From Candidatus Binataceae bacterium (GTDB taxonomy: Bacteria > Desulfobacterota > Binatia > Binatales > Binataceae), in the NCBI GenBank assembly GCA_035531855.1, contig DATKSB010000080.1:14243-78242 (forward strand): a DNA stretch of 64,000 nt. The letters are read 5' to 3'. The position numbers and the translations under genes are program-made. The notes under the pieces were generated by a model. It did not search any database, was not told the origin of the DNA, and worked only from the letters and a program-made list of their open reading frames with translations. Positions 1 through 33,207 of this stretch are shown here, piece after piece (the first letter of the stretch is position 1; the number at the start of each line of letters is the position of its first letter).

Positions 1-1148
1 AGAAATTCGCCGAGCTCGACGCAGTCGCGCGCGAGTTCAACCAGATGGCCGAGCGGCTCGAACGCTTCGAAAAGCTCAACGTCGATCGCCTGGTGTACGA
101 GAAAAGCAAGACCGAGGCGATCATCGAAAGCCTTGAAGACGGTGTGGTGCTGATCGACTCCGAAGGGATGGTCGCGCACATCAACGAAATTGCGGCGCTG
201 ATCATGGGGGTCGAACCCAAGGACGCGCTCGGCAGCCCGTTCGAGGATCTGAGCAGCAATCATCCGCACTACCTCCGCGTGCGCGACGCGCTGCGAAATC
301 TGCGCAAAGCCGACCCGGCCAGCCAGCGAATTGAGGTGCAGCTCCACGTGCGCGGCCGCGACCACACTTACGTTCTCAAACCGATGCCGCTACATCACGA
401 TGAAGGCGCGCCCCTTGGCACGCTGCTGATCCTGCAGGACGTGACTTATCTGCGCGATCAGGATCGCGCGCGCGCAAACCTGATCGCCACGCTGTCGCAT
501 GAATTGCGCACCCCGCTGACCTCGCTCGCGCTCTCGGCCGAGCTGTTGCGCCGCGACGGTGCGGCCCTCGATTCCAAGCAGCGCGATCTGCTCGAAGCGA
601 TTCTCGAAGAATGCGCGCGCATGAAGGCGCTCAGCGATAACCTGCTCAACCTCGCGCGCGGCGAGCTGGCGTCAATCTCGGTGCAGCGCGAGCGGCTCGA
701 TCTGCGGCAGATCATCGAAGAAGTCGTCCACCGTTTCGCGCTTCAAGCCGAAGAAAAGCACGTGCACCTGACCGAGCATCTCGAATCCGTTCCCGAGATA
801 TCGGGCGACGCGGTTAAGCTGTCGTGGGTGGTTTCAAATCTGATTGGCAATGCGCTGCGCTATACGCCCGAGGGCGGCGAGATCGAAGTTGCGGCTTGCT
901 CGATCGATACCAAGGTGCGGCTCGAGGTCTCGGATTCCGGCCCCGGAATTCCGCCGGAGATTCGCGAACACATTTTCGAGCGGTTCGCGCAGTACGGCCG
1001 CGGCGGAATCGAAAAAGGTTCGGCGGGCCTGGGCCTCGCGATTGCAAAAGATATCGTCGCCGCCCACGGTGGACGGATTTTCGTCGATAGCAACGCGAGC
1101 GCGGGCAGCCGCTTCGTGGTCGAGCTGCCGGCCGGAGGAACTCTGTGA
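1..1148 (+). CDS. Sensor histidine kinase, 5'-partial: open upstream of the window; PAS-like region followed by HisKA and HATPase_c
   Basis: The frame is open from base 3 (KFAELDAVAREFNQ precedes the first Met). H-box LSHELRTPLTSL and the C-terminal ATPase motifs (LRYTPEGGEI, DSGPGIP, GSAGLGLAI) are present. The stop overlaps the start of the downstream response regulator (ATGA). Confidence 0.85.
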   Translation, partial: KFAELDAVAREFNQMAERLERFEKLNVDRLVYEKSKTEAIIESLEDGVVLIDSEGMVAHINEIAALIMGVEPKDALGSPFEDLSSNHPHYLRVRDALRNLRKADPASQRIEVQLHVRGRDHTYVLKPMPLHHDEGAPLGTLLILQDVTYLRDQDRARANLIATLSHELRTPLTSLALSAELLRRDGAALDSKQRDLLEAILEECARMKALSDNLLNLARGELASISVQRERLDLRQIIEEVVHRFALQAEEKHVHLTEHLESVPEISGDAVKLSWVVSNLIGNALRYTPEGGEIEVAACSIDTKVRLEVSDSGPGIPPEIREHIFERFAQYGRGGIEKGSAGLGLAIAKDIVAAHGGRIFVDSNASAGSRFVVELPAGGTL

Positions 1149-2494
1149 TGTCTTCCCTGCTGATCGTTGACGACGAAAAAAATATCCGCCGCAGCCTCGC
1201 CTCATTCTTCGAGTCGATCGGCCATTCGGTCGCGTCCGCCGAAAACGGCCGCGAGGCTGCCGCGATGCTCGCGGGCCGCGCCTTTGACCTGGTATTGACT
1301 GATTTTCGGATGGCCGAGATGAATGGCCTCGAGTTGATCGGCGAAGTGCGCCGCCGCCAGCCCGATTGCCTGATCATCCTGATGACCGCGTACGCGACGG
1401 TCGAGAATGCGGTCACCGCGATGAAGGCCGGCGCGTACGACTACGTGACCAAGCCGTTCTCGCTCGAACAGATTCAGCACATCGTCGAGCGCGCGCTCGA
1501 GCTGCGCGGCCTGCAGGCGGAAAATCGCGCGCTGCGCGACACCATCGACGAAGCGCCGCTGCTCGAATCGCACAGCGCCACGATGACGCATCAGCTCGAA
1601 CTCGCGCGCCAGGCCGCCGCCAGCGACGCGACTATCCTGCTGACCGGCGAAAGCGGAACCGGCAAGAACGTGCTCGCCCGCCAGATGCATCGATGGAGCC
1701 GGCGCCGGGAAGGCCCCTTCGTCGTGGTCAACTGCACAACTTTGTCCGACGAGCTGCTCGAAAGCGAACTATTCGGACACATGCGCGGGTCATTCACCGG
1801 AGCGGTGAAGGACAAGCCGGGACGGCTCGAAGCGGCGGACAACGGATCGGTCTTTCTCGACGAGATCGCTGACTTGACGCCCACGTTGCAGACCAAGTTT
1901 CTGCGCTTCGTGCAGGAGCAGAGTTTCGAGCGTGTTGGCGGCGACAAAACGATTCGCGTCAACGCGCGGATCATCGCCGCCTCCAATCGCGATCTTGAAG
2001 CCGAGGTCGCGGGGCGCCGTTTCCGCGAGGATCTTTTCTACCGTCTCAACGTCATCACGATTCGGGTTCCTCCGCTGCGTGAGCGGCGCGAGGACGTGCC
2101 GGCATTGGCGCTGTGGATGCTCAAGGCCGCCGCGATCCGGCATCAGCGGCCCGCGATGCGGCTGACGCCGGAAGCGTCCGCGGCGATCTCGAAGTATCGA
2201 TGGCCCGGCAATGTGCGCGAGTTGCGCAACGCGCTCGAGCGCGCCGCGGTGCTCTCGCGCAGTGACGAGATTACGCGCGAGGATTTACCGGATTCGCTTT
2301 TTCGCGAGGCCGTCGATATTCCTTCCGGCGCAGTGCATTCAGCGGGATCGTATTCGCCGAGCCTCGAAGACCTCGAGCGCGAGCACATTCGCCGCGTGCT
2401 CGCCGAGAGCGCAACTCTGGACGAAGCCGCCGCCGCGCTCGGGATCAACGTCACCACGCTGTGGCGCAAGCGCAAACGTTACGGAATCGAATGA
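1145..2494 (+). CDS. Sigma-54-dependent response regulator (NtrC family): REC, AAA+ sigma-54 activator and Fis-type HTH domains
   Basis: N-terminal REC (LLIVDDE, D...K). Walker A GESGTGK, GSFTGA (GAFTGA-like) motif and ESELFGH. C-terminal HTH (LDEAAAALGINVTTLWRKRKR). Translationally coupled to the upstream kinase. Confidence 0.9.
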   Translation: MMSSLLIVDDEKNIRRSLASFFESIGHSVASAENGREAAAMLAGRAFDLVLTDFRMAEMNGLELIGEVRRRQPDCLIILMTAYATVENAVTAMKAGAYDYVTKPFSLEQIQHIVERALELRGLQAENRALRDTIDEAPLLESHSATMTHQLELARQAAASDATILLTGESGTGKNVLARQMHRWSRRREGPFVVVNCTTLSDELLESELFGHMRGSFTGAVKDKPGRLEAADNGSVFLDEIADLTPTLQTKFLRFVQEQSFERVGGDKTIRVNARIIAASNRDLEAEVAGRRFREDLFYRLNVITIRVPPLRERREDVPALALWMLKAAAIRHQRPAMRLTPEASAAISKYRWPGNVRELRNALERAAVLSRSDEITREDLPDSLFREAVDIPSGAVHSAGSYSPSLEDLEREHIRRVLAESATLDEAAAALGINVTTLWRKRKRYGIE

Positions 2495-2512
2495 TCGAGC
2501 ACGCGCCGCGCG

Positions 2513-2942
2513 CTAGCGGATGTAGTAGCCCGAGACGCGCCAGTGCCCGTCCCTCTCCAGCCTCGGAGTGACGATCTCTTTCGCCGCACGATGTCCGGCG
2601 AAATCCGTGGCATAAACCACAACCACGTATTTTCCCGTCGGCGCGCCCGGCAGCGACCTGGCGTAGGTGGCGGACTCGAACTTGCGCGAGGTCACGGCAC
2701 CGAGCTGCGCGCGCGTCTCGTCCATCTTTTTTTTCGAATTGATCCGCGGTCGCCGCCGCTTTGACCGGCGCAGCGGCCTGCCGCCAGGCTTGCGCGTATT
2801 GACCAGCGTCGATTTCATGCAGCCATCCTAGCGCGACGGTTCGCGCCGCGGCCTCGTCCGCCTTTTCGTCGGCTCTGACCAAGGCCGCCACCGCAATGAT
2901 CAGAATCGCCGCGATCACTCCGATTCGAATTGCGCGCTTCAT
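2513..2942 (-). CDS. Secreted DUF4019-like protein, disrupted by a frameshift in an A8/T8 homopolymer (2722-2729)
   Basis: Two minus-strand ORF fragments share one locus. An N-terminal signal peptide (MKRAIRIGVIAAILIIAVAALVRADE...QFEKK) and a C-terminal part (KKMDETRAQLGAVTSRKFESATYARSLPGAPTGKYVVVVYATDF...DGHWRVSGYYIR) join seamlessly if the A8 run is read as A7. The domain assignment is from memory of the family and needs a search. Confidence 0.45.
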
Positions 2943-3009
2943 CCGTAGCAGTCCTCCCGTCGCCGGGTTTCTTAGCAGGCGTGCGCGCACCGCGACAAGT
3001 CGCTGCTCA

Positions 3010-4239
3010 TCAATCGATCGCGAGGCTCGCGAACGAAACGCACGACTCGGTCTGCGGTTCCATCGCGATCCCATACTTAAGCAACCGCGCGGTGCATCCG
3101 CGCAAAAGTTCGAGCTGGGTGTACATCGGCGCTAGCCCGCAGATTTTCCGCGCGTCGCGGTCCGCCGCGATCGCGGCAAAAAACCCAGCCGGATCGCCGC
3201 GCTTGAGATTTTCGATCAGCGCAAGGTCTTCGCGTTCAACCTGCTTGGCCACCGTTTCATCGGCCGCAAACGCGTCGCCGAATTTCCTGCCGACATGCGC
3301 GAAATCCACGCCCGCAAGCACCAGCACGCTGCGCTTTTCAGCCGCGATCATTGCGCCCAGCGCTTCGATAAACGAACCCACGCGCGGATCCTCCGCGGGC
3401 ATCCGCCCGGACCGGATCATTTCATGGAACGAGCTTACGAGGATCGGAACCACCTGGTAGCCGCGCACCCCCATCGCATAGGCCAGGAACAGCGCCTGAA
3501 ATTCGATCGAATGCTCACCGCGATGCAAAAATTCGTCGGCAAACAAATCGCCGCCCGAGTAGCCGCCCGCAAGCTGATCCACGAACTCGCGGTCGGTCTC
3601 AACCGTTCCAAGCGGTGTCAGATAATTCTTGCGCGTCGCGCTGAACAGTGAAGGCCCCGCGCCGTAATGCGAAGTGCCAAGGATGATCACCAGCTCGGGC
3701 GGTTCGTGCGCCATCAGCTCGGCGTATGCGTGCGCATAGGCGGCCGCTCCGCGGCGCGGATCGATATGCGGGGCGATCAGGCCGCGCAGCCTTGCGCCGC
3801 TTTTGCGCGCGGGCTTGCGGCCGGGTCCGTCGGGAGGATCGAAGAACCCCGCGAGTTCCATCCGCAGTTGCGCGGGCTCCGGGGAGTAGCACAATCCAGC
3901 GAGGGCGGCAGGGCGGTCGGCCTGCGCGCGAAATTCCTCGCGCACGCGGCGTTCATGCTCCTGAAACGCGGGCGAATCCAGAAAACGCGCCTGATCGAGC
4001 GTGCCGACCAGCTCGCTTATCTTTTCGAGTTCCAAAGTCTCGCCGAAGCGCTTGGTGAACGCGGCCTGCACCTCGTGCAGATCGTTGCGCCCGTCAAACA
4101 GCGAGACGATGAAATATGCGCCCATCCCGAGCACGATCGACTCGGGCGCGAGGCCCGTCGGATCGCGCAGGCATATATAGGTTTGTCCGTCCTGATCGAC
4201 CGGAAAGGCTTCGACTCCGCGAATTATCGGTTTTTCCAT
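3010..4239 (-). CDS. Memo-like protein (AmmeMemoRadiSam system protein B / MEMO1 family) with an extra ~125-aa N-terminal domain
   Basis: Start MEKPIIRGVEAF. The Memo domain begins near ALAGLCYSPEPAQLRMEL (AG-FYP-like motif), with GLIAPHIDPRRG and ILGTSHY motifs. No AMMECR1 or radical-SAM partner is adjacent. Confidence 0.7.
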   Translation of the reverse strand: MEKPIIRGVEAFPVDQDGQTYICLRDPTGLAPESIVLGMGAYFIVSLFDGRNDLHEVQAAFTKRFGETLELEKISELVGTLDQARFLDSPAFQEHERRVREEFRAQADRPAALAGLCYSPEPAQLRMELAGFFDPPDGPGRKPARKSGARLRGLIAPHIDPRRGAAAYAHAYAELMAHEPPELVIILGTSHYGAGPSLFSATRKNYLTPLGTVETDREFVDQLAGGYSGGDLFADEFLHRGEHSIEFQALFLAYAMGVRGYQVVPILVSSFHEMIRSGRMPAEDPRVGSFIEALGAMIAAEKRSVLVLAGVDFAHVGRKFGDAFAADETVAKQVEREDLALIENLKRGDPAGFFAAIAADRDARKICGLAPMYTQLELLRGCTARLLKYGIAMEPQTESCVSFASLAID

Positions 4240-26431: not shown

Positions 26432-27157
26432 CTAGACAGCGAGTTTCATTCCGTCGGATGCCATCTCGATCTTTATTTGGCGCCGATGGTTCAGTACTTC
26501 GCGGCCGATGTGCGTCAACAGCATCCGGCCGACTTTGAATTTCCCGCGCTGCTCGGCGAGCTCGGGATAATTGATGTGAAATTTCAGATGCTTGCTCTCG
26601 AAGTAAGTGCATTCGCAGACGAAAAGATCGGCGCCCGCCGCGAACTTCACCAGCGCGTCGTTCCATCCGGTATCTCCCGAAAAAACAATTGTCTTCCCGC
26701 CCACTTCGACCTTGAACGACAACGAAATGTCGGGCTTGGTGTGCGGGCTGCGAATCGCCGAGAGACGGACCTTGCCGATTTGCAGCGTTGCGCCCGGCTC
26801 GATCACAACGAAGTTCAGCTTGTGCTTTATCCGTTTCAGGTCGAAGCCGGGAAACAGAGTTTTCAAGAGTCGCCAGCATCGCGATTCCAGATTGCGCGGC
26901 CCCACGATCGTGAGCGGACCCTCGAGCCGGCTTTCCCACATGTATTCGAGGATCAAAAACGGCAGGCCGCCAAAGTGGTCGCCGTGCAGATGGCTAATGA
27001 CAATCAGATCGATATGATTGGGCTGAACCCCGTGGCGCTTCATCGCGCCCAGTATTTCCGGACCCGCTTCCATCAGGATGCGGGTGCCATCGGCGTCAAT
27101 GATGAAACCGGCCTGCGCGCGGCCTCCGCTGGCGAAAGCGTCTCCCGTGCCAAGCAT
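26432..27157 (-). CDS. MBL-fold metallo-hydrolase (RNase Z / PhnP-like)
   Basis: Start MLGTGDAFASGGR; HLHGDHFGG motif. Confidence 0.6.
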   Translation of the reverse strand: MLGTGDAFASGGRAQAGFIIDADGTRILMEAGPEILGAMKRHGVQPNHIDLIVISHLHGDHFGGLPFLILEYMWESRLEGPLTIVGPRNLESRCWRLLKTLFPGFDLKRIKHKLNFVVIEPGATLQIGKVRLSAIRSPHTKPDISLSFKVEVGGKTIVFSGDTGWNDALVKFAAGADLFVCECTYFESKHLKFHINYPELAEQRGKFKVGRMLLTHIGREVLNHRRQIKIEMASDGMKLAV

Positions 27158-27276
27158 GGTCACACTCGCGCTGTTCTTGCGTACTGGCGCGTGATTGGAA
27201 TTCTTCAAAGCGGACCTCATGCTAGTATCTACCATATGGCTATGCAAAATACGGTGCGCCGAAATAGTGTGCATTC

Positions 27277-28230
27277 ATGACACCGCAAGTAAAGATAGGT
27301 GCTGGTTTTGGATTGTGGCGTTTAGGAATGCCGTCGGCCGAGACGATCGCTCGAGTGGCGGAGCGCGCCGAAGACTGGGGCCTGGATTCCTTCTGGCTTT
27401 CGGACCATCTGCTCGCGCCGTCGCCGGAACTCGACGTCGTCGCCACGCTTTCGCTCATCGCCTCGCGCACCTCGCGGATGAAACTCGGGCCGAGCGTGCT
27501 GCTCTTGAACCTGCGGCATCCGCTGATGGCAGCGAAGTCGTTCGCGTCGCTGGATTATCTGTCCGGCGGCAGGATGGTGATGGCGGTCGGCACCGGATCG
27601 AATCTGGCCGACTACGCGGCCTGCGGAATTTCGCCGGACGCGCGCGGCAAACGGCTGGACGAAGGAATCGAAGTTCTGCGCACGGTCTGGAAAGATCGGC
27701 AGGCGAGTTATCATGGCCGGTTCTTCAATTTCGACAACGTGACGATCGAGCCACGGCCCGCGCCGCGCGCGAACAACGATTTCGGCACGATGGACATCTG
27801 GATCGGCGGACGCGCGGAGTCGGCGCTGCGGCGCACGGCGCGGCTCGGCGACGGATTCTTCGCGTCGTTCCAGACCCCCGAGGAATACGAATCGAGCATG
27901 GCGAAAATTCGCGCTTACGCCGTCGAGTACGGCCGCGCGAATGCGCGAATCGAGTCGGGGCTGATCCTGCTCTGCCGAATCGCGAGCTCACGCGAAAAGG
28001 CGCTCAAGGAAATGCAGCCGATGCTCTCCGCGATGGGCCGCGGGTCCGAAGCATTTCTCGAGCGCAGCGTGTACGGCTCCGCCGAAGATATCGCCGCGCA
28101 GATGGAACGGTACATCGCAAAGGGACTCGACAAGTTCGTCCTGTGGCCGATCGCAGCCCCCGATTCATGGGAGCAGCAAATCGAGCTGGTCGGTCGCGAG
28201 ATTGCCGCCCATTATGCGCGCGCCGCATGA
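27277..28230 (+). CDS. LLM-class flavin-dependent oxidoreductase (luciferase-like monooxygenase fold)
   Basis: 317 aa; the LSDHLL and TIM-barrel LLM signature regions. Confidence 0.75.
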   Translation: MTPQVKIGAGFGLWRLGMPSAETIARVAERAEDWGLDSFWLSDHLLAPSPELDVVATLSLIASRTSRMKLGPSVLLLNLRHPLMAAKSFASLDYLSGGRMVMAVGTGSNLADYAACGISPDARGKRLDEGIEVLRTVWKDRQASYHGRFFNFDNVTIEPRPAPRANNDFGTMDIWIGGRAESALRRTARLGDGFFASFQTPEEYESSMAKIRAYAVEYGRANARIESGLILLCRIASSREKALKEMQPMLSAMGRGSEAFLERSVYGSAEDIAAQMERYIAKGLDKFVLWPIAAPDSWEQQIELVGREIAAHYARAA

Positions 28231-28813
28231 GCATAAGAGCATAGCGCGCCTGCTCGGCGCGCTGATCGTCGCGACGGCGCTGTGCGCCGCGGCGGGATGC
28301 AGCCGCCCCGCGCCGCCGCCTGCCGCGCATTCGATCTATGCCAGCGCGGAATCGGTCGAGGAAAACTTTCGCGGAAGAGAATTCATTCTCGGCGAGAGCA
28401 ACACGGTCGCGATGGTTCGCACCCTCGGCTCGGGCAACAACGCCTGGATGAAACTGCCGTTCTGGTTCGGCGTCAACATTCTGGTCCCCGGCGTCACGCA
28501 GCCGAAGGAAGGCGACTACTACGTGATCAGCGAGGCGACGTTGGGCAAGCCGCTCAGCGCACCAGGCGAATGGATGATCGACGCGGGCAGCACGCTCGTG
28601 AAACAGGAGACCGTATTCATCACGACCCGCACGCACTACGACAGCGGCGGAAAAATTCTTCCAACCATCGTGCAATACATGGGCAAGCGCGAATTTACCC
28701 GCGGTGACGGCAAAAAGGTCGAGATCCCGGTCGTGCGCGAGGTCTCGTTGCCAATGAAATGGACGCTCGAAGGCCAAGTGCCGGCAAGCTACGCGCGTTT
28801 TCGAATCGGATGA
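28214..28813 (+). CDS. Lipoprotein of unknown function (paralog 1)
   Basis: Signal peptide with lipobox LCAAAGC. Shares about 35 % identity with the downstream paralog (PFWFGVN, VREVSLPM). Confidence 0.55.
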   Translation: MRAPHEHKSIARLLGALIVATALCAAAGCSRPAPPPAAHSIYASAESVEENFRGREFILGESNTVAMVRTLGSGNNAWMKLPFWFGVNILVPGVTQPKEGDYYVISEATLGKPLSAPGEWMIDAGSTLVKQETVFITTRTHYDSGGKILPTIVQYMGKREFTRGDGKKVEIPVVREVSLPMKWTLEGQVPASYARFRIG

Positions 28814-29436
28814 ACCGCGCGCGAATCAAAGCGTGGACCGTCGCCGCGATCACCGTGCTGATGATCGCGGGCGGCGCGGGATGTAGTCCGGACAAGGCGC
28901 TGGATTTCGGTCCGACCGGCGAGATTAATACTCCGCCGCAGGATCAGCTAAGCCGCGACATCCTGCGCGATTTCGACGGCAAGGATTTCACCCTCGGCGA
29001 CAACGATCGCCAAGCCCACGTTCATCTGAGCGGATGGGCGGAAAATCGCGGGGTCGTGATGCCGTTCTGGCTGGGCGTCAATCCGCTGTATCCGGGGTTT
29101 CTGCGGCCCACGGTCGGACATATTTATGTGATGAGCGAATCGACGATGGTGCGGCCTCTCGGCCACAACGAGTACCTGATTCGCGCGGGCTCGAAACTGT
29201 TCAAGTTCGACACGCTGCTCGAAGCCACGCACACCCGCTACCTCGACACGGGCAGGATGCTCCCGATAGTGGTGCGCTTCGTCGGCACGCGAGTGATCAC
29301 GGTGCCAAAAGACGCGCCCGCAGCCGGAACGATTACTGAGAAGGTCCCGGTCCTGCGCGAAGTCTCGCTACCAATGCACGTCGATGCACCCGAACCGGGC
29401 TACGTAAAGTTCGAGGTTATGAAGAACCCCGCCTGA
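28810..29436 (+). CDS. Lipoprotein of unknown function (paralog 2)
   Basis: Start ATGA-overlaps the paralog 1 stop. Lipobox MIAGGAGC. Motifs PFWLGVNPL, IVVRFVG and VLREVSLPM are shared with paralog 1. Confidence 0.55.
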   Translation: MNRARIKAWTVAAITVLMIAGGAGCSPDKALDFGPTGEINTPPQDQLSRDILRDFDGKDFTLGDNDRQAHVHLSGWAENRGVVMPFWLGVNPLYPGFLRPTVGHIYVMSESTMVRPLGHNEYLIRAGSKLFKFDTLLEATHTRYLDTGRMLPIVVRFVGTRVITVPKDAPAAGTITEKVPVLREVSLPMHVDAPEPGYVKFEVMKNPA

Positions 29437-29462
29437 ACGTAGGCCGCAGCGGCGATCCCCTT

Positions 29463-29519
29463 CCGTCATCCTGAGCGGAGGCCGCAGCGGCCGGAGTCGA
29501 AGGATCCCGGACGCTCATG
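29463..29519. repeat. Left arm of a ~57-bp inverted repeat flanking the GIY-YIG gene
   Basis: CCGTCATCCTGAGCGGAGGCCGCAGCGGCCGGAGTCGAAGGATCCCGG. The reverse complement matches 29929-29985 with about 5 mismatches. Each arm carries an internal GGCCGCAGCGGCC palindrome. Confidence 0.7.
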
Positions 29520-29582
29520 CAGACTCTCACGATTGCCCGCTCTGGCCTGGAAACGACTAGAGTCGCCGTTCTCATTCGCCGC

Positions 29583-29855
29583 TCAGGTCACTCCAGGTGG
29601 ATTGTTCCGCTCGATCAGCGCAGTCTTCTTCGCGCGCGTCCACCCCTTGAGTTGCTTTTCTCTCGCGATTCCATCCGCAGCCCGATCAAATTGCTCGAAA
29701 TAGACCAGGCGCGTGACGTGGTAACGCGCGGTAAAACCGGCGATCGCTTTCTCCCCATGCTCCGCGATCCACCGATCGAGGTCATTTGTCACACCGACGT
29801 AGATGACGCGCGAGGGGCTCGCGACGATGTAAACCGAAAACGTGCGCTCGCGCAT
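29583..29855 (-). CDS. GIY-YIG nuclease family protein (UPF0213 / YhbQ-like)
   Basis: Start MRERTFSVYIVAS. VIYVGVTNDLDRWIAEH and Y..FEQFDRAADGIAREKQLKGW motifs. Confidence 0.75.
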   Translation of the reverse strand: MRERTFSVYIVASPSRVIYVGVTNDLDRWIAEHGEKAIAGFTARYHVTRLVYFEQFDRAADGIAREKQLKGWTRAKKTALIERNNPPGVT

Positions 29856-29928
29856 AAGCGCGATCGTCGCTGGCATCGCGGGCGAGGACAAGCGCCCGGA
29901 GGTCGGAAGAGGAATCGTGACGGCGTGC

Positions 29929-29985
29929 ATGGACGCCCGGGATCCTTCGACGCCGGCCGCAGCGGCCTCCGCTCAGGATGACGCA
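29929..29985. repeat. Right arm of the inverted repeat flanking the GIY-YIG gene
   Basis: CATGGACGCCCGGGATCCTTCGACGCCGGCCGCAGCGGCCTCCGCTCAGGATGACG, the reverse complement of the left arm. Confidence 0.7.
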
Positions 29986-30098
29986 AGATCGAGCCGGTTC
30001 CGATAAAATCACAAACTCTGAGCAGCGTGTCAGCCGACTTCTCGCTCGATAGCGGTCAATCCCGAAAGATCGTATACACGCCGGCAAAGGAGGAACCT

Positions 30099-30842
30099 AT
30101 GCAGATCTTCTGCACGTATCCCTTGAGCGTAAGCGATCGGTCTAAAGGAAAAGTTGAAGCTATTCGCCGGTGGGGAACGCCTCGTGTGAAAGGAATTGAC
30201 GGTCGTGCCAGATCGGCCAAACGCGGAATGTTTTTCGTCTCCGGTTCGTTCGGCTTAATACCTCATGATCAGCCGGTCAACTCAGATCTCAAGACGTTCA
30301 CCGAAACCGATATAGAAGGCATTCTGCCACGAGTGCGAAATAGCCTGATAAAATACCAAATCGACGGTATCACGTTTTACCTAAACCCGACCGAGAAGCA
30401 GGGTCTAGCTTACCTGCGCCTGCTCGTAATCGCCTGCTATTTACAGCGTAAGACCCTGACGGCCAGGTCCTTCAAAGACGAGGAATTTCCTGACTGGATG
30501 GAATCAATGCGCGAAGCCAAGCTGACTCGAGAGCGCGCCCGGGGATTACGGGACAAACCGGACAGAATCAAAGAGTCGTTTGATCTTCTCTTGAAGAAAT
30601 ATGGCCGCGACCCAATGATTCTATTCGAACAGGCGAACACATATGCAGACCTAGACAACTTCGAGGCCGCGGCGAAAGACTACGAGGAAGCGGCAAGGCT
30701 GCTCCCGCTTCCTGAGTTCGAAAATCTGGCCCATCAGAAAGCGCGAGCGGAAAAGAGAAGATCAGGGGCTCTTCTGCCCGCGACCTCGGACCCTCCAAGT
30801 TGGAGCAAGGAATCTCGTGGCCCGAATCGGATCCGGGCATAA
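30099..30842 (+). CDS. Hypothetical protein (247 aa) in a low-GC island; C-terminal TPR-like region
   Basis: Strong SD AAGGAGGAACCT-ATG. Local GC is about 50 % against 65-68 % in flanking genes. No family recognised. Confidence 0.45.
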   Translation: MQIFCTYPLSVSDRSKGKVEAIRRWGTPRVKGIDGRARSAKRGMFFVSGSFGLIPHDQPVNSDLKTFTETDIEGILPRVRNSLIKYQIDGITFYLNPTEKQGLAYLRLLVIACYLQRKTLTARSFKDEEFPDWMESMREAKLTRERARGLRDKPDRIKESFDLLLKKYGRDPMILFEQANTYADLDNFEAAAKDYEEAARLLPLPEFENLAHQKARAEKRRSGALLPATSDPPSWSKESRGPNRIRA

Positions 30843-31168
30843 AGACGCTTTACGCACAGGCCCGGAAACTCGTGCCTCATTGCCCATCAGCTTCCGTGTC
30901 TGTGTCTCGGACGGCACTCGTCCGCCTGGTTGTCATTCGCGAGGCCCCAACTACCCGCGAGACGGATAGGAACAATAAATTAGGCGAACGGATTCAGGCT
31001 TTAGGGGTATCTCCGCACGTGAAAACTCTTATGGGGGAGTTATCGACGCTGCGGAACAAGATCGAATATGACCCTTGTAGACGCGCTAATCTCGCGACTC
31101 CGACGGACGCAAAATTATGCGTCGACAAGTTGATGGAGGTTCTAGCGGCTCTCTATCCTCGTCGTTGA
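30800..31168 (+). CDS. DUF4145-like protein (tentative), overlapping the upstream ORF in the -1 frame
   Basis: TTG start. IKTLYAQARKL...LGERIQALGVSPHVKTLMGELSTLRNKIEYD...LMEVLAALY resembles the DUF4145 helical domain, which is usually C-terminal in restriction/Abi-type proteins. The assignment is from memory only. Confidence 0.35.
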   Translation: MEQGISWPESDPGIKTLYAQARKLVPHCPSASVSVSRTALVRLVVIREAPTTRETDRNNKLGERIQALGVSPHVKTLMGELSTLRNKIEYDPCRRANLATPTDAKLCVDKLMEVLAALYPRR

Positions 31169-31200
31169 CCCTTTTAGCCATTTCAGTTCCCGCAACAAGC

Positions 31201-33207
31201 TCATGTGTTCGCCTCTTCGGCGTCCTGCAGCGTCGCGGTGGGAAGAATTTCGGCGGGAAGATCGTCGAGGAAGCGGGAGGCGCGGCCCATCATGTAGCCG
31301 TTCATGCGATCGAACATGTAGATCGGATAGGTCAGGTAAAGCTCGTCGCGGGCGCGCGTGCTCGCTACGTACATCAGGCGGCGCTCTTCTTCGATTGACT
31401 CTTCGTCCACGCTCATCGGACCGGGGAAGCGGCCGTCCGCCGCCCAAATTACGAAGACAATGCGCCATTCGAGGCCCTTGGCTGAATGGATCGTGCTGAG
31501 CGTCAGGAACTCGTCCTCGGGACCCTCGGCCAGAACGCCGCCAAGGGAATCGCTCGGAGGCTCGAGCGCCATGTCGGAGAGCATCGTCTCGAGGCTGCGG
31601 TAGCGCTCGGTGATGTTCTGAAAATGTTCGAGGTCGCGCTCGCGCTTGGGGAAATCGTCGGGGTACGCCTCGCGCATCAGCGGCAGGTAGTATGCCAGCG
31701 TCGCGGCGATCTGCTCGGCAGGACGTTTCGATTCGCCGCGGATCTCTGTGAGCAGCGCCGCAAGTTGCGCGTAACCCGACGCCGCTCCGCCGCGTCCTCC
31801 CGATTGCCCCAGCCGCGCGAGTTCGCGCTCGGGCGCATCTGAGGTAACGAGCGCCTCGACTGTGCGCTCGGCGGTGCGATGCCCGACTCCGCGCACGAGC
31901 ATCAGCGCGCGCAGCCATGAGACCGCATCGGCGGGATTTGCGACCACCCGCAGATGCGCGAGCACGTCTTTGATATGCGCGGTCTCGATGAACTTGAATC
32001 CGCCGCGCTTGATAAACGGGATATCGCGGCGCTGGAGTTCGAGTTCGAGATCAAAGGAGTGAAAGCTCGAGCGGAACAGCACCGCCATCTCGCCCAGCTC
32101 GACGCCCTCTTCGCGCAGCTCCAGGATGCGTTGCGCGACGAAACGCGACTGCATGTGCTCGTCCTGCGCGCGGACCAGGATCGGCCGGAAATCGCCGCGG
32201 CGCGAGGTGAACAGGACCTTGGTGTACTTCTCGGCCGCGCGCGAAATCACCTCATTGGCAACGTCGAGGATTCCCTGCACCGAACGGTAATTCTCTTCGA
32301 GCTTGATCACGCGAGCGCCGGTGAACAACTCGGGAAAGTCCATAATGTTGTGGAAGTTCGCGCCGCGAAACGAATAGATCGACTGCGCGTCGTCGCCCAC
32401 CGCCATCACGTTGCGATGCTCCGAAGCGAGAAGCTGCACCAACTCGGCCTGGATGCGGTTGGTGTCCTGATATTCGTCGATCATAATGTAGCGATAGCTT
32501 TGCGAAAGGCGCTGGCGCACCTGCGGATACTGCCGCAGCAATTCGGCGAGCCGGTAGAGCAGATCGTCGTAGTCGAGCAGCGCGCGTTCGCGCTTGTAGG
32601 CCTCGTACTTTTCGGCGAGCGCGACGATCTCGCCCTGATGCTCGATCAGGTGCGCGAAATCCATCTCGATCTCTTCGGCCAGGTCGCGCATCTTGTTGCG
32701 CGCCATGCTGATCACTTCGGCGACCGTGCTCTTTTTCGGAAAGCGCCGCTCGCGCGACGCAAGTCCCATCCGCGCGCGCAACAGATTGATCACGTCCTCC
32801 ATATCGCCGCGATCGAGAATCGTGAAATTCGGTTTGAGCCCCATCTGGGCGCCGTGGCGGCGCAGAATATTGTTCGCGAACGAATGAAAGGTACCGCCCG
32901 CGACCGCGCGTGAAGCCTCACCGACCAGCCGCTCGACCCGCTCGAGCATCTCCTGCGCCGCGCGCCGGGTAAACGTCATCAGCAGGATCGCGCCGGGCGG
33001 GACTCCGCTCTCGATAAGTCGCGCGACGCGGTAGATAAGCGTGCGAGTCTTTCCCGAGCCTGCGCCCGCGATCACCAGCAGCGGGCCGTCGCGATGCGTC
33101 ACCGCGGCAAGCTGTGCCACGTTCAGCAACTCGGCATACTTGATCTTGTAGACGCGCTCGCCCGGCTCCCGATTGGGGTCGCGCAGGAAAATAACCTTAT
33201 CCGCCAC
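31201..33207 (-). CDS. ATP-dependent DNA helicase, UvrD/PcrA/Rep family
   Basis: 668 aa. Walker A AGAGSGKT, motifs Ia/II (DEYQDTN), GDDAQSIY, and the C-terminal 2A domain. Confidence 0.85.
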   Translation of the reverse strand: MADKVIFLRDPNREPGERVYKIKYAELLNVAQLAAVTHRDGPLLVIAGAGSGKTRTLIYRVARLIESGVPPGAILLMTFTRRAAQEMLERVERLVGEASRAVAGGTFHSFANNILRRHGAQMGLKPNFTILDRGDMEDVINLLRARMGLASRERRFPKKSTVAEVISMARNKMRDLAEEIEMDFAHLIEHQGEIVALAEKYEAYKRERALLDYDDLLYRLAELLRQYPQVRQRLSQSYRYIMIDEYQDTNRIQAELVQLLASEHRNVMAVGDDAQSIYSFRGANFHNIMDFPELFTGARVIKLEENYRSVQGILDVANEVISRAAEKYTKVLFTSRRGDFRPILVRAQDEHMQSRFVAQRILELREEGVELGEMAVLFRSSFHSFDLELELQRRDIPFIKRGGFKFIETAHIKDVLAHLRVVANPADAVSWLRALMLVRGVGHRTAERTVEALVTSDAPERELARLGQSGGRGGAASGYAQLAALLTEIRGESKRPAEQIAATLAYYLPLMREAYPDDFPKRERDLEHFQNITERYRSLETMLSDMALEPPSDSLGGVLAEGPEDEFLTLSTIHSAKGLEWRIVFVIWAADGRFPGPMSVDEESIEEERRLMYVASTRARDELYLTYPIYMFDRMNGYMMGRASRFLDDLPAEILPTATLQDAEEANT

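Follow-up and report, generated by a model that had tools for sequence, protein, structure and literature searches.

The locus considered here raises the question of whether two overlapping open reading frames (ORFs), found in a patch of low guanine-plus-cytosine (GC) content, are two genes or one, and how they came to lie where they do. The patch occupies positions 30027-31168 of a 64,000-nt stretch of contig DATKSB010000080.1 from a Candidatus Binataceae bacterium (the window, to which coordinates refer unless another locus is named), between a GIY-YIG gene (29583-29930, minus strand) and a UvrD-type helicase gene (31201-33207, minus strand), which is where an earlier note, made from the letters alone, had placed it. 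Very probably, it is a single horizontally acquired gene for a protein with a DUF6884 domain, TPR-like repeats and a DUF4145-type HEPN domain, which has been split by a frameshift and is decaying, i.e. a foreign gene caught in the course of decay at a hotspot in the genome of an uncultured soil lineage. Besides exposing a rare three-module architecture (YaaA-like DUF6884, TPR and DUF4145 HEPN), this reading would correct the public annotation, in which a 218-aa 'hypothetical protein' stands in the place of a frameshifted gene of 356 codons.

Two reading frames, probably one gene

ORF1 (30099-30842, plus strand, 247 aa; stop codon at 30840-30842) makes up the 5' two-thirds of the gene and encodes the DUF6884/YaaA-like domain, the TPR-like region and an out-of-register tail. 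Its ATG at 30099 is preceded, at a distance of 5 nt, by the Shine-Dalgarno sequence AAGGAGG (30087-30093, plus strand, read from the sequence), which had been described as a textbook one and indeed is, while the GTG at 30027 is a mere mechanical ORF start, homologues starting at the residue that matches the ATG at 30099. ORF2 (30800-31168, plus strand, 122 aa) makes up the 3' third and holds the remnant of the DUF4145-type HEPN domain; the 43-nt overlap with ORF1, the -1 frame and the non-ATG start (TTG) reported for it earlier are all as described. No Shine-Dalgarno sequence was found before this TTG on inspection of the sequence, and scans for promoters and terminators returned no plus-strand promoter and no terminator.

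A word-indexed search of 5.8 billion clusters retrieved nothing for ORF2 and, for ORF1, only ORF1 itself, which is listed at NCBI as a hypothetical protein of a Candidatus Binataceae metagenome-assembled genome (annotated at 218 aa). An exhaustive phmmer search with ORF1 against 1.84 billion representatives gave 55 matches at E <= 1e-3 (20 at E <= 1e-10), mostly to proteins of 330-370 aa, whose residues 1-215 pair with residues 1-215 of ORF1 and which extend about 120-150 C-terminal residues beyond this match. ORF2, in turn, matches the C-terminal part of such proteins in BLASTP comparisons, namely aa 250-363 of P0002 (E 3e-13) and aa 243-352 of P0003 (E 3e-17), in both cases up to the final residue. 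Upon insertion of one base after 30797 a protein of 356 aa is obtained, which can be aligned over its entire length with 30 homologues (alignment A1, 31 sequences). The close subfamily, including this repaired protein, was matched to the canonical subfamily by hhalign with a probability of 100% (E 1.2e-57, 347 columns), and the structure model of the repaired protein (predicted local distance difference test score, pLDDT, of 90) shows predicted YaaA-like, TPR and HEPN folds.

These sequence comparisons support the reading of ORF1 and ORF2 as halves of one frameshifted gene. Two possibilities had been put forward in the earlier note, i.e. one frameshifted effector-DUF4145 gene or a coupled pair, and it is the former that is supported, as homologues are mostly single ORFs and the one-base repair aligns over the full length; split versions do exist in the family, so that the coupled pair is not without precedent, but at this locus it is disfavoured. 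ORF2 alone matches the canonical family profile only weakly (hhalign probability 9%, E 0.0036), which means that its link to DUF4145 depends on the close subfamily.

The three modules

The N-terminal alpha/beta domain (aa 1-128, 30099-30482, plus strand) resembles YaaA and DUF6884, the latter being a YaaA-related family with CxxxK and LSAxxG motifs, a positively charged cleft and predicted base flipping (PMC11701544). Neither ORF1 nor the repaired protein matches the Pfam model PF21818 (DUF6884); of the homologues, P0016 scores 31.4 bits against the cut-off of 30 and others 17-30 bits, and it is to such DUF6884-scoring homologues that ORF1 is tied by phmmer (E 1e-11 to 1e-17). The CxxxK motif is absent in the window copy: at the site CTYPLSVSDRS (30111-30143, plus strand), where the family has CTYCSxxK, Pro stands in for the motif Cys and the Lys is missing; the closest subfamily keeps the Cys and likewise has no Lys. 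The LSAxxG motif is present as VSGSFGL (30237-30257, plus strand), which aligns with ILSGxxGL of the family and of which G52 is invariant in all 31 aligned sequences. According to the model, the domain would have the YaaA-type ('cantaloupe') alpha/beta fold. Downstream of it lies a TPR-like helical middle of five helices (aa 133-221, 30495-30761, plus strand), in which a TPR_2 signal at aa 174-203 reaches 22.8 bits, under the Pfam cut-off of 27. The first gene had been said to hold no recognisable domain apart from a TPR-like C-terminus, and this stands for the TPR signal (sub-threshold as it is), but not for the N-terminal part, where a divergent DUF6884/YaaA-like domain was overlooked.

DUF4145 is a divergent HEPN family whose members occur in fusions with restriction and helicase modules (PMC3710099), and in the anti-phage protein RAZR its residues R146 and H154 are needed for RNase activity against phage (PMC13017515). 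The Pfam model (PF13643) does not match ORF2, even at E <= 1, nor the repaired protein, and its cut-off of 23.1 is exceeded by the homologues P0006, P0009, P0013, P0016 and P0018 (31-50 bits). It is therefore via homologues, i.e. through the BLASTP matches to P0002 and P0003 and the Pfam scores of more distant members, and not by a direct match, that the earlier assignment of the second ORF as DUF4145-like is confirmed. The all-alpha HEPN fold is predicted by the model as well. What the window copy lacks is the catalytic Arg...His motif (Rx4-6H; R146/H154 in RAZR): where canonical members have MHTxRxxGNxxAH, it has MGELSTLRNKIEY (31031-31069, plus strand), with Ser (31043-31045) for the catalytic Arg and Tyr (31067-31069) for the catalytic His. 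The closest relatives vary at the catalytic positions as well, where F, W, Y or H is found. PADLOC returned no matches for ORF1 or ORF2.

Frameshift and probable decay of the local copy

The frameshift lies within a zone of 127 nt that is open in both frames (30716-30842, plus strand), the last stop in the ORF2 frame being at 30713. It is the equivalent of a 1-nt deletion (-1) in an unconserved linker, for which homology points to about 30790-30800. A script search of this zone found no slippery heptamer (X_XXY_YYZ), the only runs being A4, A4 and G4. The locus was also found in four other contigs, from four samples (98-100% identity; assembled by the ENA and JGI pipelines), and the -1 frameshift is common to all five assemblies. 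In the four others, the identical 247-aa ORF1 product has been called, no gene has been called between it and the helicase, and ORF2 has been called in none.

Within ORF2, a second indel of 1 nt is polymorphic (30922-30923, plus strand; CC in the window, L002 and L004, C in L001 and L003), and in the two near-identical assemblies out of five that have the single C, ORF2 is interrupted by it within the first conserved HEPN helix (SRTALVRLVV). In addition, the window protein departs from 14 of the 44 strongly conserved positions of the family, which is the most among the 31 aligned sequences, the close subfamily being divergent as well with 5-12 departures per member. Judged by these features, ORF2 is a defunct remnant. 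From ORF1 a 247-aa DUF6884-like/TPR product may still be made, probably a non-catalytic one, although the non-functionality of ORF1 is something we infer rather than demonstrate.

Acquisition and the helicase/lipo2 junction

The GC content over 30027-31168 is 0.533, versus a mean of 0.617 for the 64-kb window (standard deviation 0.025, z = -3.3), and just 2 of 1258 windows of the same size are lower, both of which overlap the patch. The minimum of 0.50 is reached in 300-nt windows at 30150-30600, and among the 64 bins of 1 kb, that at 30001-31000 has the lowest value. The drop to about 50% that had been noted is therefore found at this finer scale and the patch is indeed the lowest in the window, but its neighbours have 0.60-0.64 instead of the 65-68% attributed to them. 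At third codon positions (GC3) the values are 0.58 for ORF1 and 0.57 for ORF2, versus 0.71-0.80 for the surrounding genes; P0002, the closest intact relative, has a GC of 0.52 and a GC3 of 0.58, equal to the broken gene. Taken by its GC profile, the low-GC foreign segment with its single broken gene covers 29988-31173 (plus strand, 1.19 kb), i.e. 111 nt upstream and 5 nt downstream of the gene, its limits being the end of an inverted repeat on the left and the resumption of homology to relatives on the right.

This segment is part of a lineage-specific insert (29440-31173, delimited by blastn boundaries and tblastn) between two convergent genes, lipo2 (a putative lipoprotein gene, stop at ~29436) and the UvrD-type helicase gene (stop at 31201). 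Homology to the seven closest species in blastn stops at 29425-29440 and resumes at 31174-31220, and the corresponding interval measures only 146 bp in the closest species. The comparison was extended to a set of 80 Binataceae or related loci, obtained from a helicase scan of species-representative genomes, in which tblastn gave no match for ORF1, ORF2 or the GIY-YIG protein. The low-GC gene is horizontally acquired, on the basis of its absence from the junction in all 80 of these species-level relatives and of its foreign codon composition, and the same conclusion, drawn earlier from the GC drop, is upheld. Direct repeats or a target-site duplication flanking the insert were not found.

In most of the 80 loci the order helicase | lipo2-lipo1-LLM-MBL is kept (LLM, luciferase-like monooxygenase; MBL, metallo-beta-lactamase fold), and in about 60-80 Binataceae species without the island the helicase gene and the genes flanking it belong to the syntenic core. 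The gap between helicase and lipo2 (29437-31200 in the window), on the other hand, spans 6 bp to 5.2 kb across species (loci L005-L084) and holds cargo that differs unrelatedly from species to species: UPF0047 (15 species), S9 peptidase, epimerase, deaminase, NTP_transf_8, HTH with M78, MerR with DUF433, and an IS1-like transposase. The junction appears to be a general plasticity hotspot in Binataceae rather than a defence island, and the cargo in other species is mostly metabolic. An ORF of 1145 aa is also among the cargo.

The GIY-YIG module (29460-29987, minus strand, 528 bp) is a separate neighbour, delimited by inverted repeats of 75 nt (29460-29534 and 29913-29987) that are 87% complementary, and the unit is single-copy within the window. 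Its gene encodes 115 aa (Pfam GIY-YIG, 44.6 bits) with a GC3 of 0.72, which is host-like, unlike that of the broken gene, so that the insert probably received its two modules in separate events. A match to Rfam mir-1911 (E 0.1) inside the inverted repeat, the sole Rfam match, was rejected as spurious.

A few further observations were made around the insert. Over the island and its immediate flanks (about 28340-31440), contig L004 and the window show 100% identity, and on either side (28243-28339 and 31450-31927) they diverge sharply. The density of single-nucleotide polymorphisms (SNPs) is 0.004/nt in the island versus 0.077/nt in the adjoining 3' part of the helicase gene, where 46 of the 58 are at third codon positions. 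This tract of identity looks like a recent recombination tract, or a sweep, carrying the island. The two tandem paralogous putative lipoprotein genes (28202-29436; 203 and 225 aa, 35-40% identity), whose mechanical ORFs overlap at 28759-28813 and neither of which has a Pfam domain, are kept beside the luciferase-like monooxygenase gene in most Binataceae loci. For the metallo-beta-lactamase-fold gene (26432-27274, minus strand) the precomputed Pfam match is Anti-Pycsar_Apyc1 (PF23023), a label that probably reflects generic similarity within the fold, since the gene is part of the conserved syntenic core in relatives.

The wider family

The family to which the broken gene belongs is rare and known solely from environmental sequences, with 22 metagenome loci. 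Viral contigs, GenBank phages and PLSDB plasmids contained no members, which leaves a phage or plasmid origin unsupported. Intact members have about 350 aa, made up of a YaaA/DUF6884-type domain (family motifs CxxxK and LSGxxG), about 2.5 TPR-like repeats and a C-terminal DUF4145-type HEPN domain. The searchable literature yielded no account of such an architecture, which appears to be undescribed.

Three forms of the gene are met with. The fused form, in a single frame, is present at about 17 loci (roughly 10 distinct proteins), and a short form without any HEPN part is present at L095-L097; P0004, with 221 aa, had been taken for another short form and was rejected, being truncated by the contig end. 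The split form is found in the window, in L121 and in L122/L123, and in all three the sequence for the HEPN part is in frame -1, with the break at the same linker. In L121 (206-1272) the two ORFs are of 246 and 121 aa, overlap by 40 nt and the second has an ATG start, whereas in L122 (3001-4100, identical in sequence to L123 1577-2676) a 242-aa DUF6884+TPR gene and a 124-aa DUF4145 gene overlap by 4 nt (TTGA) and are called as two genes. The latter type of split is seen in at least four contigs, and both L121 and L122 keep intact MHTxRTLGNxxAH motifs. In L122, a run of C6 lies about 20 nt upstream of the junction.

Members are often below their surroundings in GC (0.38 vs 0.51 in L106, 0.48 vs 0.59 in L100). 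The island of L085 (10001-11089, P0064), among housekeeping neighbours, is sharper than that of the window, with a GC of 0.354 and a GC3 of 0.28 in a contig of 0.555. Nuclease, restriction, defence-type or toxin-antitoxin genes were found in 5 of the 9 contexts inspected, a count made without statistical control. These comprise AbiTii and GmrSD in L095, REase-ARP/PDDEXK_13 and HARE-HTH in L116, an SNF2 helicase and a DUF1156 methylase in L119, Mrr_cat, a LEM-3 GIY-YIG and DUF7669 in L112, and ParE/Phd in L089; the contexts of L085, L114 and L122 are of the housekeeping kind, and in L124 a UvrD-type helicase gene directly precedes the family member. That member (P0012, within 639-3711) is a short one. 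In L119 (188-6972), P0060 stands between an SNF2/ResIII+NOV_C helicase and the DUF1156 methylase, in a DISARM-like neighbourhood.

Two other arrangements were seen among the family loci. In L093 (6337-7071; also L094 2609-3343) a 244-aa paralogue follows directly 3' of a full-length family member of 400 aa, and as it has the TPR region and a family-like C-terminal tail (ILEWW) and no DUF6884 domain, it looks like a tandem partial duplication. In L100 (6839-8405; also L101 19-1321) the gene for a 373-aa protein with a Pfam YaaA match (PF03883, 35 bits) and a C-terminal RFRNKVVF motif is followed immediately by a standalone DUF6884-like gene (134 aa). The two genes have a GC of 0.48 in a contig of 0.59, and the 373-aa protein may represent a second YaaA-like plus HEPN-like architecture.

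The position next to nucleic-acid enzymes had been taken in the earlier note as fitting a defence or mobile-element cargo role. As an argument from position this is weak, given that the helicase is a core gene, the cargo of the junction is mostly metabolic and the GIY-YIG unit is separate, and the local neighbourhood gives no support to a defence role. For the family, such a role is plausible, if unproven, from what its sequences offer, i.e. the RAZR-type HEPN domain, the atypical GC elsewhere and the five contexts mentioned above.

Proposed explanation and its alternatives

By analogy with RAZR and Csm6, the intact protein would most likely be a sensor-effector. Its N-terminal domain, for which nucleic-acid binding and the flipping of a base into a pocket have been proposed, would together with the TPR region sense a nucleic-acid or protein cue, upon which the HEPN domain would dimerise and cleave RNA. 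The fusion of DUF6884 to DUF4145 suggests, more specifically, that RNA would be cleaved once a lesion or a modified base in DNA has been recognised, and intact members (e.g. P0009, P0013 and P0016) are candidates for function tests. In this Binataceae lineage the gene would have landed in the variable junction between two convergent core genes, after which a frameshift resembling a 1-nt deletion would have arisen in the linker, such that the ribosome would stop at 30842, after the TPR module, and leave the HEPN module (ORF2) untranslated in the -1 frame.

Several points weigh against a single gene in decay. ORF1 is intact, has its textbook Shine-Dalgarno sequence and is identical in five assemblies, so it could be a functional short form, and genuine short forms without a HEPN remnant do exist (L095-L097). 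The loss of catalytic residues is partly common to the intact members P0002, P0003 and P0014 of the closest subfamily, and it may reflect a changed function instead of decay. As the linker is unconserved, the frameshift is placed only approximately, and the substitutions within the gene number just two (one synonymous, in ORF1; one non-synonymous, in ORF2), too few for a measure of selection. Finally, -1 splits have recurred in two other, independent lineages, which means that the split can be a stable, possibly functional state. Random decay alone does not explain a -1 split that recurs at the same linker, so for the family as a whole a functional split is a possibility to be kept.

If the split were functional at this locus too, ORF1 (sensor/TPR) and ORF2 (HEPN-like) would both be expressed, the latter by coupling or re-initiation at the TTG at 30800. 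The precedents of L121 and L122/L123, where the second ORF is likewise in the -1 frame, speak in its favour, but the TTG is situated 43 nt inside ORF1 without a Shine-Dalgarno sequence, ORF2 is uncalled in four assemblies and broken once more at 30922 in two of the five near-identical haplotypes, and its HEPN Arg and His have become Ser and Tyr, which together make such a pair improbable here. The same three lineages could also be taken to indicate programmed -1 frameshifting in the linker, through which one mRNA would give products of 247 and 356 aa and the ratio of sensor-only to sensor-RNase product would be set. This is a good deal harder to believe, considering that 30716-30842 contains no slippery heptamer (and none is evident by eye in the overlaps of L121 and L122, which were not searched by script), that the linker sequences are mutually unrelated, that about 17 other loci (roughly 10 distinct proteins) are in a single frame, and that in two haplotypes recoding would be of no avail, given their second frameshift at 30922.

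Single-base indels are frequent assembly errors and short A4 and G4 runs do occur in the overlap, so the frameshift might be an artefact of sequencing or assembly that hides an intact protein of 356 aa. With the same frames in the window and in four contigs from four different samples and two pipelines, and with runs too short for typical Illumina indel sites, the chance of this is close to nil. There is equally little room for two unrelated defence-island genes that would act with the GIY-YIG nuclease and the UvrD helicase, e.g. in a Gabija-like system: the helicase does score on the PADLOC GajB models (E 1e-90) and the nuclease does adjoin, but these models are generic for UvrD-family helicases, and the proposal is contradicted by synteny, the helicase and its flanks being core genes in relatives that are free of the island. 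Moreover, the GIY-YIG gene belongs to a self-contained inverted-repeat unit with host-like GC3, and ORF1 and ORF2 are halves of one gene with no PADLOC matches. The frameshifted and decaying single gene thus remains by far the preferred reading. A wider proposal, which we regard as doubtful though less so than the alternatives above, is that intact members, whether in one protein or in two, make up a so far undescribed module of anti-phage defence or abortive infection. Foreign, damaged or modified DNA would be sensed by a YaaA-like domain that flips bases, and a RAZR-type HEPN RNase would be activated in response. Selection would then have favoured the -1 split that recurs at the linker as a means to uncouple, tune or phase-switch a toxic RNase, and the window copy would be an end state.

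Comparison with known systems

The locus resembles frameshifted pseudogenes of acquired genes in hotspots in its atypical GC, its insertion as a single gene at a variable junction, its disabling frameshifts that differ between strains and its lost conserved residues. It differs from them in that the break is exactly at a domain linker and recurs there in two unrelated lineages of the family, which random decay does not predict.

With regard to its N-terminal part, the family can be compared with DUF6884 (PF21818), YaaA (DUF328, PF03883; PDB 5caj) and DpdC, domains of a type for which DNA binding and base flipping have been proposed, and from which it is distinguished by the fusion to TPR and HEPN modules, and the window copy in addition by Pro for the motif Cys and the absence of the Lys. 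With regard to its C-terminal part, the comparison is with RAZR/PD-T7-4, a zinc finger joined to a DUF4145 HEPN RNase (PMC13017515; PDB 9y9c). The C-terminal domain of the family falls in the same DUF4145 branch of HEPN, and canonical members keep the Arg and His at the spacing of R146/H154. The canonical family profile matches PDB 9y9c ('DUF4145 domain-containing protein', 24 chains) at E 1.6e-4 and, in PADLOC, PD-T7-4 (E about 1e-5), PDC-M16A, PDC-M57A and DpdC, the PD-T7-4 matches being confined to the C-terminal domain of the homologues. Both are single polypeptides in which an N-terminal non-catalytic or sensing module is followed by HEPN, but this module is a YaaA/DUF6884-like alpha/beta domain plus TPR in the family and a Cys4 zinc ribbon in RAZR. 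No sign of ring assembly or of phage triggers was seen for the family, and the window copy is frameshifted and without the Arg and His.

As for the order of the modules, the family is like Csm6/Csx1 (CARF, helical region and HEPN), with an alpha/beta N-terminal domain, a helical middle and a C-terminal HEPN domain. The best Foldseek matches in the PDB were in fact to Csm6 of T. thermophilus (5fsh_A, E 1.3e-4, probability 0.98), the difference being that the N-terminal domain of the family does not have the CARF fold.

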